A stretch of 64,000 bases of DNA from Candidatus Multivoradales bacterium. GTDB lineage: Bacteria; Acidobacteriota; Thermoanaerobaculia; Multivoradales; Multivoraceae. Under the pieces are notes generated by a model that saw nothing but the letters and a program-made list of their open reading frames with translations, was not told where the DNA came from and did not search any database. Shown here piece by piece: positions 13,108-15,132 of the stretch (position 1 is its first letter; every line of letters begins with the position of its first letter). Location: positions 160,001 through 224,000 of the forward strand of contig CBDCWI010000001.1 in assembly GCA_965223325.1 (NCBI GenBank), in the 5' to 3' direction. A program made the translations under genes and the position numbers.

Positions 13108-15132
13108 TCAAATGCTCGAGGAGCCCGCGTTCGAAGTCTGCGGCGCCGTTTCAGGGGTGGTCCCGGTGTCGTTCTTGCCGTCGTCCTGTTCGAGCTCCGC
13201 GAGCCGGATACTGCGTGAGTAAACGCGGTGGACGGCTTGCACGAGGCCGAGGCGGTTCTGGCGCTGCTCGTCATCATCCGTGCGCACGAGAACCTCGGTC
13301 ATGAACCGTTCGACAACCTCGCCGAGCTCGAGCATCCCGGCGAGCCAACGTTCATGCTCGGGACGAGCACCGGCTGCCGGCGCAGTCACCACCGAGCGAA
13401 TCACCGGGCGCACCCGCTCGAGCGTCTCCCACAGTGCACGCTCGGCCGGCTCCCGCAAGCGAGTAGGGTCGACCTCCCGCTCGGGGGCCTCCCGCAGAAT
13501 CGACACCATCCGTCGCGCGGTCCTCACGACCCGGGCCAATCCTTCGCGGCCGCGCAGGTGGGTCAACAGACCGAGGCGGGCCTCGACGTCGCCAATCAGG
13601 CTGCTACCACCGGCACCGAGCACCGCTTCGACCTCGCCTAGTTGGTAGCCGCGCTCGGCGAGGACCGTTCGCAGAATCCGCGTGCGCAAAGGGCGCAGAT
13701 CCATCAGTACGGCCTCGTCGCTCCTCCTTGCCCCTCGCTGTTGCAGACGAACCGCCCGCGCGGTCGCCAGGTCGAGATCGAGCGGCAGGCGAGTCCGAGA
13801 GAGCGTCTTGATCACTTTGTAGAGCGCCCGCCCGACCTCAGCGTCGTCGGCGCCCTCGAGTTCACGGGTGCTCATCGTGACGGCCCGGGAGGCCACCAGG
13901 TCCAGGGCATTGGCGATCTCGACCACCTGGCGCACGCCGAAGCGTTCAGCATCAACGGCGGCATCAGCGGCCGTCTCGTCGTCGGGCGATTCCGTGGCTC
14001 CTCCCAGGCAGCGCCCGCCGGCGATCGCCCGCCACACCGACTCGGGGTAGCCCTCGTCTCGGGCCATCAAAGCACCAACGACTCCCGCCAACCCGGGGTA
14101 CTCCAGAACGGTCTCGGTCGCCCGATCGGCCGGCGCCATCTGCGCCGCCTCGCGCGCGCGGTCGGCGCGCTCCTGCCATCCAAGATCGCCGCACAGGCTT
14201 TCGGCGAGCGTTGCCACCCGATCGATTCGTTCTCCCCAGGTACCACTACCCACACCGTAGCGACGTGTTCGTAGCTCACGCGCAAAACGCGCCAGAGGCT
14301 CCGAACGATCGCGCGCCCAGAGGACAGCCAGATCCTCGAGGCGTTCGGTGAGCCGCCAGGAGTGACCGAGGCCAATCGCCCCATCGGGATCGTCCGGCCG
14401 GTCGAGAACCACCAGCACGCGATCCAAGAGCTCACCGCCCGCGGACGCGCGCAGTGGAAAGACCTCCAGCCGCTCTTTCAAACAGTGTTCGACCAACACC
14501 TCTGGCAGCCCCCGAAAGACCGGCGGCAGATCGACGGTGATGACCCCTGGGCTTTCGAGACTCCAGACCAGTTCATCAATCAGTGACTCCACGCCGCTCA
14601 GTTCGGCGCCAGCTTCTTTCGCACGCTCCTCGAGAGCGGCAAAGAGCGTCGACCGACGCTCGGCTGGTTGAACCAGAACACCCCGTTCCTCGAGCGCCGA
14701 GAAGTAGTCCTCGGAGGTCGACGGTGAAAAGGGGTCAGGCGACAAGACGGGGTGCCCAATCGAAGTCGCGCCGGTCTCGACTCCCAGAACCCTCGCCTGG
14801 CAGGCCTTTCCATTGACCAGCAGCAACGCCCCGACGGGCTCGAGAACATCCCAATCACCGTGCCGTTTGTTGCCGGCCGACGAGAACGGGGCAAAGGTCG
14901 CGAGAACGGCATCGACGGCGGCCCCAACGACGCGCTCGCCGTCCCTGCCTTCGTCGCTGAGCCGTAGGGCAACCACCAAACGGCGGCAGGTCGCGCCGCT
15001 TCTCCCGCGGTCGCACTGGACACCGGCGGCAAGCAGTTCACGCACCACATGGCCACGCAGGGCCGGGCCGAGCTCCCGGGCACGAGCCCGAGGGAGGCCG
15101 TCGAAGCGAAGCTCGAGCAGAAAGTCGCTCAC
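13108..15132 (-). CDS. glyS: Highly divergent glycyl-tRNA synthetase beta-subunit-like protein
   Basis: DFLLELRFDGLP (cf. FLVEIGTEELP), RRLVV, GHPVL...AERR, RLEDLAVLWARD, D-R-ATETVLEYPGLAG, DEQRQNRLGL; located between glyQ-like and ppdK. Confidence 0.75.
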   Translation of the reverse strand: MSDFLLELRFDGLPRARARELGPALRGHVVRELLAAGVQCDRGRSGATCRRLVVALRLSDEGRDGERVVGAAVDAVLATFAPFSSAGNKRHGDWDVLEPVGALLLVNGKACQARVLGVETGATSIGHPVLSPDPFSPSTSEDYFSALEERGVLVQPAERRSTLFAALEERAKEAGAELSGVESLIDELVWSLESPGVITVDLPPVFRGLPEVLVEHCLKERLEVFPLRASAGGELLDRVLVVLDRPDDPDGAIGLGHSWRLTERLEDLAVLWARDRSEPLARFARELRTRRYGVGSGTWGERIDRVATLAESLCGDLGWQERADRAREAAQMAPADRATETVLEYPGLAGVVGALMARDEGYPESVWRAIAGGRCLGGATESPDDETAADAAVDAERFGVRQVVEIANALDLVASRAVTMSTRELEGADDAEVGRALYKVIKTLSRTRLPLDLDLATARAVRLQQRGARRSDEAVLMDLRPLRTRILRTVLAERGYQLGEVEAVLGAGGSSLIGDVEARLGLLTHLRGREGLARVVRTARRMVSILREAPEREVDPTRLREPAERALWETLERVRPVIRSVVTAPAAGARPEHERWLAGMLELGEVVERFMTEVLVRTDDDEQRQNRLGLVQAVHRVYSRSIRLAELEQDDGKNDTGTTPETAPQTSNAGSSSI

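Follow-up and report, generated by a model that had tools for sequence, protein, structure and literature searches.

What keeps two reading frames open when their products appear to have lost the residues needed for the reaction after which they are named? The question is raised by two adjacent genes, glyQ-like and glyS-like, on the reverse strand of a 64,000-nucleotide stretch (hereafter the window) from Candidatus Multivoradales bacterium (assembly GCA_965223325.1, contig CBDCWI010000001.1, positions 160,001 to 224,000). Both resemble the subunit genes of the heterotetrameric glycyl-tRNA synthetase (GlyRS). The first-pass annotation of this DNA described a degenerate pair but missed the key context: the pair is orthologous to the ancestral glyQS and has been supplanted by a dimeric GlyRS whose gene lies at another place in the genome. 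Taken together, gene content and residue losses make displacement by the dimeric enzyme and catalytic death of the pair very probable. With moderate confidence, we further suggest that the pair may now form a relic complex that has no catalytic activity but is still maintained by selection, possibly to bind tRNA or other RNA.

The glyS-like protein matched Pfam PF02092 (tRNA_synt_2f) with 160.6 bits (cut-off 29.2, E 8.8e-47), which speaks for homology and not for function, and its C-terminal part matched DALR_1. The nearest solved chain was E. coli GlyS (7yse_C, E 1.6e-32, query residues 93–645). Together with the open frame, these matches confirm an intact open reading frame (ORF) of about 674 aa with GlyS landmarks, as had been noticed at first. 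The protein scored under the equivalog cut-offs of TIGR00211 (213 bits vs. 300) and NF011499 (175.9 vs. 1244). Its glyQ-like partner matched PF02091 with 42.2 bits (canonical relatives reach 438–451), fell below the NCBIfam equivalog cut-off (40.5 vs. 361) and had GlyQ 8ie2_B as the nearest solved chain (E 3.6e-10). The earlier view that both subunits are degenerate was borne out.

The genome of the window (G000; 6.69 Mb in two contigs, C1 and C2) was compared with three sets of genomes. The first consisted of 40 relatives, 24 of them from the window's own family (f1), two from a second family of the same order (f7) and 14 from other families. The second was an evenly drawn order-wide sample of 151 genomes, including 20 genomes of the f1 genus g11, and the third was a phylum-wide sample of 301 genomes with a completeness of at least 90%. 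Four of the genomes counted (G158, G185, G210 and G305) are unpublished; each has a canonical GlyQ, and no conclusion rests on them.

In a profile search of G000, GlyQ and GlyS each had a single match, and both matches lie at the 13108–16004 locus. The genome also encodes a dimeric (alpha2) GlyRS of 505 aa at G000:C2:3002800-3004314 (NF003211, 587 bits vs. a cut-off of 312), whose nearest solved chains are 8u2q, 8sld, 8t5n and 1ati. Among the 40 relatives, the dimeric enzyme was found in 22/24 f1 genomes, in both f7 genomes and in none of the 14 genomes of other families; the two f1 relatives without a match are only 73% and 79% complete. The order-wide sample gave the same distribution, with the dimeric enzyme in 21/21 f1 genomes (plus G000), 21/21 f7 genomes and 0/108 of the rest. 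GlyQ followed the opposite pattern. In the set of relatives, it scored 438–451 bits in 12/14 genomes of other families, 214 and 165 bits in the f7 genomes, and 85–157 bits in 9/24 f1 genomes, the other 15 being without a match. Order-wide, GlyQ was matched in 106/108 genomes of other families at about 430–452 bits (lower only where contigs cut the gene), in 20/21 f7 genomes at 165–281 bits and in 1/21 f1 genomes, genus g11 giving 0/20. Degraded or absent GlyQ was thus confined to f1 and f7 among the 151 order genomes, and the relic pair is present in 8 of the 13 f1 genera sampled. Phylum-wide, 240 of the 301 genomes carry GlyQ and 59 a dimeric GlyRS. Low GlyQ scores in G170, G248 and G340 were considered as further relics and rejected, being contig-end fragments in genomes without a dimeric GlyRS. 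Neither type of GlyRS was found in G035 and G036 of the same order (97% and 94% complete), where assembly gaps are possible.

The gene order era-mgtE-recO-glyQ-glyS-ppdK-mutL is common to relatives with canonical glyQS (mgtE-recO-glyQ-glyS-ppdK in G026 and G038), and synteny with recO is conserved throughout the order. Since the slot and the gene order are shared, the pair is a positional orthologue of glyQS and not a paralogue. Judging from gene content, the dimeric GlyRS, and not the relic pair, would be the provider of Gly-tRNA-Gly in G000.

It should be asked whether the pair might be an artefact, that is, a chance GC-rich frame, a misassembly or a pseudogene of recent origin. DNA of 65% G+C is rich in long spurious frames, and many of them overlap this locus. 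The genes themselves do not behave in this way: homology, at the E value given above, is full-length; positional orthologues occur in 9 further f1 genomes and, with a single exception, throughout the f7 genomes sampled; and public gene callers predict the same ORFs in relatives. The G+C fractions at the three codon positions (0.77, 0.51 and 0.75) are like those of neighbouring genes, and four DNA sequencing runs of one study, which may include the source sample, contain 98–100% of the words sampled from the stretch; no RNA run was among the runs listed. This evidence refutes an artefact, to which we give almost no credence.

The following course of events is strongly supported. At 13108–16004 (reverse strand), the pair represents the heterotetrameric GlyRS operon that the lineage had from the start, still in its original slot, recO-glyQ-glyS-(ppdK)-mutL. 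The operon became redundant when the glycylation of tRNA-Gly passed to a dimeric alpha2 GlyRS, which is now encoded on the other contig. Since then, the alpha-like subunit has lost its glycine pocket, Mg2+ ligands, CCA-end contacts and, in G000, the motif-3 arginine, and the beta-like subunit its acceptor-stem loop, B1 loop and the whole elbow-binding B2 domain. The most likely product is a non-catalytic alpha-beta complex that would keep the GlyRS fold and an anticodon-binding domain (ABD). Its putative role would be that of a dispensable accessory, lost in some sister genera, most plausibly in binding tRNA-Gly or other RNA. As a possible ligand, tRNA-Gly remains present in its old form, since U73 and the GCGGG acceptor stem are intact in the three tRNA-Gly genes of G000.

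Residues were numbered on a MAFFT alignment keyed to E. coli GlyS and GlyQ (locus L050). The domain limits of GlyS (B2 being E. coli residues 66–124) follow passages of PMC8464048, and the roles of GlyRS residues follow passages of PMC8464048 and PMC9908026; residues were called conserved on the text of these passages and on our own alignment. Tallies for f1 refer to ten sequences, G000 included. The baseline of retention is 52% for the beta subunit, derived from 159 columns invariant in E. coli and three canonical relatives, and 36% for the alpha subunit. It is worth noting that the alpha-like alignments are near the twilight zone (19–31% identity), and single-column calls there carry risk.

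In the alpha-like subunit of G000, the glycine pocket reads LVQLE instead of the E. coli TQQWE (T39L, Q82V, W121L), and the Mg2+ ligands DEE are replaced by RRN (D67R, E134R, E141N). Three ATP arginines (R64, R69 and R76) are kept, and the motif-3 arginine R169 is replaced by S. Both CCA-end contacts are also replaced (N256 by S, R269 by P). Across f1, the Mg2+ ligands of the alpha-like subunit are kept in 4/29 alignment cells and its tRNA contacts in 4/20.

In the glyS-like protein of G000, K146, R149, W150 and R159 are replaced by F, A, G and E. In loop H18-19, G473, D474 and R481 are replaced by L, G and G, and D476 and R482 are kept; R531 and Q409 have become I and A. Every listed residue that binds U73, the CCA end or the acceptor stem (W150, R159, G473, D474, R481, R531 and Q409) is replaced. 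The motif replacements pointed out in the first-pass annotation were found as stated: FPKxMRWG corresponds to APFSSAGNKRHGDW, GDKDPFALRR to EGADDAEVGR and AIxEHYxP to AIAGGRCL. Across f1, acceptor-side residues of the beta-like subunit are kept in 28/110 cells, residues of the HD cavity in 21/70 and ATP-support residues of B3 in 7/20. Of the CCA-end contacts, alpha N256 is kept in 0/10 and beta Q409 in 1/10 sequences.

These replacements bear on whether the pair still works as a synthetase or ligase, either as a conditional second GlyRS or with a new amino-acid or acceptor specificity. Some features would fit such an activity. On the ATP side of the alpha-like subunit, 26/37 f1 cells retain the arginine at R64, R69, R76 or R169, compared with the 36% baseline, and E162 is mostly kept; G000 retains beta R326 and D329. 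The tRNA-Gly of G000 also still has U73. However, G000 has lost R169, every Mg2+ ligand (three positions) and three glycine-pocket residues out of five, and the lost CCA-end contacts are those called absolutely conserved in passages of PMC9908026. Deletion of B2 or of loop H18-19 cripples tRNA charging by the E. coli enzyme, as described in passages of PMC8464048 and PMC9908026. In addition, the glycine-pocket residues vary from genus to genus in f1, so that no new conserved specificity is apparent. We consider a working enzyme very unlikely.

The most conspicuous change in the beta-like subunit is the deletion of a domain. In the B2 columns, G000 has 1 residue, whereas three canonical relatives have 58–59; the deletion after RRL noticed at first is therefore confirmed by the alignment to E. 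coli GlyS. The five-domain GlyS architecture B1-B2-B3-HD-ABD is reduced in G000 to four domains of near-canonical length, with 90, 126, 217 and 153 residues for B1b, B3, HD and ABD, compared with 91, 125, 200 and 149 in E. coli. B2 is likewise absent in G001, G003, G004, G005, G012 and G013, is cut to 19 residues in G008, and is present in G010 and G015 (57 residues) and in f7. On the GlyS tree, G010 and G015 nest beside the B2-less G004, with a support of 96 in the Shimodaira–Hasegawa-like approximate likelihood ratio test (SH-aLRT), which suggests more than one loss of B2. A search of a 1.84-billion protein library with the glyS-like query gave 4190 matches at E 1e-3 or better and 112 at 1e-30 or better. 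In named genomes, the related loci found were three distant GlyS loci of Halanaerobiales (21–25% identity). B2 was missing in eleven full or near-full-length cluster representatives of this library.

The ABD shows a different pattern of retention. The first-pass annotation had held that the tRNA-recognition surfaces are lost; this stands for the contacts with the acceptor stem and the CCA end and for those of the B1 loop, but the anticodon contacts R585, V655 and V657 are kept. In f1, R585 and V655 are retained in 10/10 sequences and V657 in 9/10, and the corresponding values for all 16 aligned sequences are 16/16, 16/16 and 15/16. At R585, F652, V655, V657 and M658, G000 has R, M, V, V and R; the VLV motif (E. 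coli V655–V657) lies at residues 614–616 of its glyS-like protein. The whole anticodon class of the beta-like subunit is kept in 31/50 f1 cells, compared with the 28/110 of the acceptor-side class.

Conservation of another kind was found within the relic clade. There are 97 glyS-like columns common to at least nine of the ten f1 sequences, with a dense block at E. coli 406–427. This best-conserved block of the clade corresponds to residues 346–367 of the G000 protein, within the HD domain. Four positions are invariant in f1 (10/10) and unlike the canonical residue, namely E. coli G11 (R), A59 (R), A637 (W) and D684 (R), and R341 is replaced by P in a column shared by at least nine sequences; in the G000 protein these residues are R9, R57, W596, R643 and P279. 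The f1 invariants recur in the library, where about 20 cluster representatives carry the RRPWWR signature or a near variant. R at E. coli 684 also occurs in f7-like sequences, and W at E. coli 637 in f1-like sequences only.

The pair evolves much faster than canonical glyQS. At a RecO identity of about 46–57%, canonical GlyQ proteins are 82–84% and GlyS proteins 61–63% identical, while at similar RecO identity the GlyQ-like proteins of f1 are 19–31% and the GlyS-like proteins 31–42% identical, leaving out the congeneric pair G010–G015 (49% and 60%, respectively). Terminal branches of the GlyQ tree measure 0.10–0.12 in canonical, 0.92–1.11 in f7 and 0.52–1.86 in f1 sequences (G000 1.86); those of the GlyS tree measure 0.25–0.34, 0.60–0.68 and 0.25–1.08 (G000 1.08). 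Relative to canonical proteins, the alpha-like subunit is more than 10 times and the beta-like subunit about 3 times faster.

The most serious competing explanation is that the proteins have no function and that only the surroundings of the two genes keep their frames open: stops or frameshifts would uncouple translation and be polar on ppdK and mutL, bad products would be costly, and the eventual outcome would be clean deletion. The packing of the locus favours this explanation. The overlaps between recO and the glyQ-like gene and between the latter and the glyS-like gene are 4 nt each, and 13 nt separate the glyS-like stop from ppdK, which leaves no room for signals; a scan of the recO-to-ppdK interval found no terminator-like or promoter-like site. 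The conjecture that the two genes stay coupled was upheld: in all lineages compared, the stop of the first gene overlaps the start of the second or lies very close to it (overlaps of 4, 8 or 14 nt, or a 3-nt gap, in relatives). Clean deletions in at least three f1 genera, and only about a dozen glyQ-like columns conserved in at least eight of the ten f1 members, also fit a relic without function, as do the shift from lysine to arginine and the strong erosion of the G000 copy.

Nevertheless, polarity alone predicts a ratio of nonsynonymous to synonymous substitution rates (dN/dS) near 1. By the Nei–Gojobori method with 500 bootstraps, three independent pairs gave 0.45 (0.33–0.58), 0.53 (0.31–0.76) and 0.45 (0.29–0.63) for the glyQ-like gene and 0.36 (0.30–0.44), 0.44 (0.34–0.55) and 0.35 (0.27–0.44) for the glyS-like gene, so that no upper bound exceeds 0.76; neighbouring genes gave 0.13–0.24. 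In the pair G010–G015, dN/dS was 0.23 for the HD domain and 0.66 (0.33–1.16) for B2, the latter being compatible with neutrality. A codon model (GY+F3X4) rejected omega = 1 for both genes, with twice the log-likelihood difference equal to 520.6 (glyQ-like) and 1872.6 (glyS-like). The fitted omegas (0.055 and 0.091 for the relic genes, 0.032 for recO) mean little, because the codon trees are saturated (41–77 changes per codon). No internal stops were found in the 12 relic beta and 11 relic alpha genes of the codon alignments, and in a neutral simulation of the glyS-like frame, all 300 copies had lost the open frame once 0.2 substitutions per site or more had accumulated. Stops were flagged inside read-through matches of G004, G030, G032 and G033, the last two from canonical families; in G004 and G030, the genes themselves are open.

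Other features also speak against a relic without function. Domain lengths are kept within a few residues, save for the cleanly excised B2, and the relic clade has gained invariant Trp and Arg residues of its own. Although clean deletion is evidently possible, 20/21 f7 genomes and 8/13 f1 genera still have the pair. We hold this alternative to be possible but clearly less probable than a selected complex. Open frames, dN/dS, conserved architecture and new invariants support the view that the relic proteins are probably still selected. From the open coupled frames, the kept domain lengths, dN/dS well below 1 and the clade's own invariants, we infer that the pair is not a decaying pseudogene. 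The idea of a repurposed alpha2beta2 scaffold, put forward in the first-pass annotation, would be compatible with such residual purifying selection.

Several observations weigh against a selected relic complex. Tight operon packing is in itself a protein-independent reason for open frames. In G011, G016, G007 and G002, mutL comes immediately after recO, and neither the pair nor ppdK has left any remnant between them, which indicates that the pair is dispensable in those lineages. Lysine is largely replaced by arginine in the relic pair, as mutation-driven drift in GC-rich DNA under relaxed constraint would give. The G000 copy is the most eroded member, its alpha-like subunit scoring 42 bits vs. 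85–157 in the family, and it deviates in 13 columns where the other nine f1 members agree. The anticodon contacts do not give uniform support either: all ten f1 sequences have another residue at E. coli M658, and eight of them at F652, although passages of the source paper call these contacts backbone-mediated. In the closest pair, the ABD had a dN/dS of 0.50 (0.31–0.77), the highest of any domain apart from B2. Finally, synonymous sites are near saturation, which makes the omega values themselves unreliable.

If a selected complex is nevertheless assumed, its activity can be outlined tentatively. It is conceivable, although we would not expect it to be the final answer, that the displaced (alpha-beta)2 GlyRS became a long-lived dead complex in one or two families, discarding the parts that bind the elbow and the acceptor, keeping its anticodon domain and serving as a factor that binds or senses tRNA-Gly or other RNA. 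If true, nature would have provided a separation-of-function variant in which a second role of the GlyRS beta subunit, apart from aminoacylation, comes to light.

Whether the displacement took place once or twice can be approached from several trees. The GlyS tree joins f1 and f7 (SH-aLRT 99), and the combined RecO and MgtE tree does not settle their relationship (approximately unbiased (AU) test, p 0.41). The dimeric enzymes of f1 and f7 are 45–48% identical to each other and 47–54% identical to those of other families; they join with a support of 67/68 when G383 is left out of the tree. An AU rejection obtained from trees of the dimeric GlyRS was set aside, as it was caused by G383 nesting inside f1. 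This genome (locus L070) belongs to another family of the phylum and encodes a dimeric GlyRS 69% identical to that of G000. It has no GlyQ match though other members of its family have canonical GlyQ, and transfer or contamination could account for this. As to the order of loss, catalytic and acceptor-side residues appear to have gone first, then B2 and then the whole pair, the last step having been taken cleanly in at least three f1 genera.

Compared with canonical glyQS, the pair has the same gene order, overlapping or abutting frames and a slot beside recO. It also shares a class II fold homologue in the alpha subunit, B1, B3, HD and DALR-type ABD near canonical lengths in the beta subunit, the anticodon-contact R585 and the V655/V657 motif. 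It differs in that B2 is gone and the acceptor-stem loop, the B1 loop, the CCA-end contacts, the glycine pocket and the Mg2+ ligands are replaced. The partner alpha gene is adjacent but without an intact class II active site. Unlike canonical glyQS, the pair falls below the equivalog cut-offs, is not the genome's only GlyRS and evolves 3 to more than 10 times faster.

Synthetase homologues without catalysis are known from other systems. HisZ, which regulates ATP phosphoribosyltransferase as one of its subunits, is similar to HisRS but no longer aminoacylates tRNA and has a selected non-catalytic role in a hetero-oligomer; it is a paralogue found beside an active HisRS of the same type, and its partner is HisG. 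The relic pair resembles HisZ as a synthetase homologue with catalytic residues lost and purifying selection apparently retained (dN/dS 0.35–0.53, with synonymous sites near saturation). In contrast to HisZ, here the orthologue itself was displaced by an enzyme of unrelated type, and both subunits degenerated together. The HisRS-like domain of the eukaryotic kinase GCN2 is a dead synthetase module, fused to the kinase, which senses through experimentally shown tRNA binding. The relic pair would resemble it if the anticodon domain still binds tRNA-Gly.

Among 542 proteomes, both types of GlyRS were found together once, a situation called extremely rare, and no model fully explains the patchy distribution of the two-subunit and dimeric enzymes in bacteria, according to passages of 10.1101/2023.05.29.542759. 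The case described here is similar to that co-occurrence in having both types in one genome, but differs in that co-occurrence extends across two families (f7 20/21, f1 9/24) and the two-subunit copy is degenerate; a degenerate copy is not mentioned in the passages of that source. A full-text literature search found no description of a degenerate glyQS. The two families thus present a replacement caught with the old enzyme still present, which makes the order of events readable. Should the relic have a role, it would represent a pseudoenzyme that arose from the orthologous synthetase itself, and it would suggest that the GlyRS beta subunit can do more than help to charge tRNA. There is also a practical consequence, in that homology-based annotation is prone to label the pair glyQ and glyS, misstating Gly-tRNA synthesis in these organisms.

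Table 1. Coordinates of the relic glyQS pair, its parts and its immediate neighbours in the window.
Feature	Position	Strand	Description
glyS-like ORF, 674 aa + stop	13108..15132	-	Degenerate heterotetrameric-GlyRS beta subunit; domain order B1-(B2 deleted)-B3-HD-ABD
glyQ-like ORF, 291 aa + stop	15129..16004	-	Degenerate alpha (catalytic) subunit; weak PF02091 match
GTGA, glyS-like GTG start overlapping glyQ-like TGA stop by 4 nt	15129..15132	-	
B2-deletion junction, about residues 58–63 (E. coli 66–124 missing)	14944..14961	-	1/59 B2 columns filled
HD-domain homologue, about residues 279–495	13648..14298	-	Acceptor-stem loop H18-19 and most cavity residues replaced
DALR-type anticodon-binding domain core, residues 539–642	13207..13518	-	DALR_1 27.2 bits (cut-off 22.3); holds R541 (E. 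coli R585)
recO, upstream neighbour	16001..16828	-	RecO_N and RecO_C matches; 4-nt overlap with glyQ-like start
ppdK (pyruvate, phosphate dikinase), downstream neighbour	10308..13094	-	TIGR01828 1211 bits

The pair lies in a co-directional series consisting of phoH, a gene for a 7TM-HD protein, era, mgtE, recO, the pair itself, ppdK, mutL, rnc and asnS. The ATG of ppdK is at 13094, with GAAGG immediately before it. It should be noted that ppdK is absent between the glyS-like gene and mutL in G004, G013, G030 and G040 (L035, L040, L042 and L043). It is a variable passenger of the slot, also missing there in genomes without the pair.

The glyS-like protein ends in a tail of about 28 low-complexity residues (from ELEQDDGKND to SSSI; window 13108–13194, reverse strand), which lies past the GlyS homology and has no counterpart in aligned relatives. 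The relic proteins are poor in lysine, with 2–12 residues in glyS-like proteins vs. 18–23 in canonical relatives and 0–4 vs. 7–8 in glyQ-like proteins. The net charge of the domains gave no signal.

Elsewhere in the window, a group II intron was found at 3929–5722 on the forward strand. Its RNA part matched Rfam RF02005 (D1-D4) at 3929–4147 with 180.6 bits, and the product of the ORF that follows (4157–5722) matched the reverse transcriptase/maturase of group II introns (TIGR04416, 342 bits). Of the 51 tRNA genes called by aragorn in G000, only 3 lie on contig C1 (2.14 Mb), the contig with era, recO, mutL, rnc and asnS. An identical tRNA-Arg(CCT) gene was called on both contigs, at C1 56299–56375 and C2 3901–3977.

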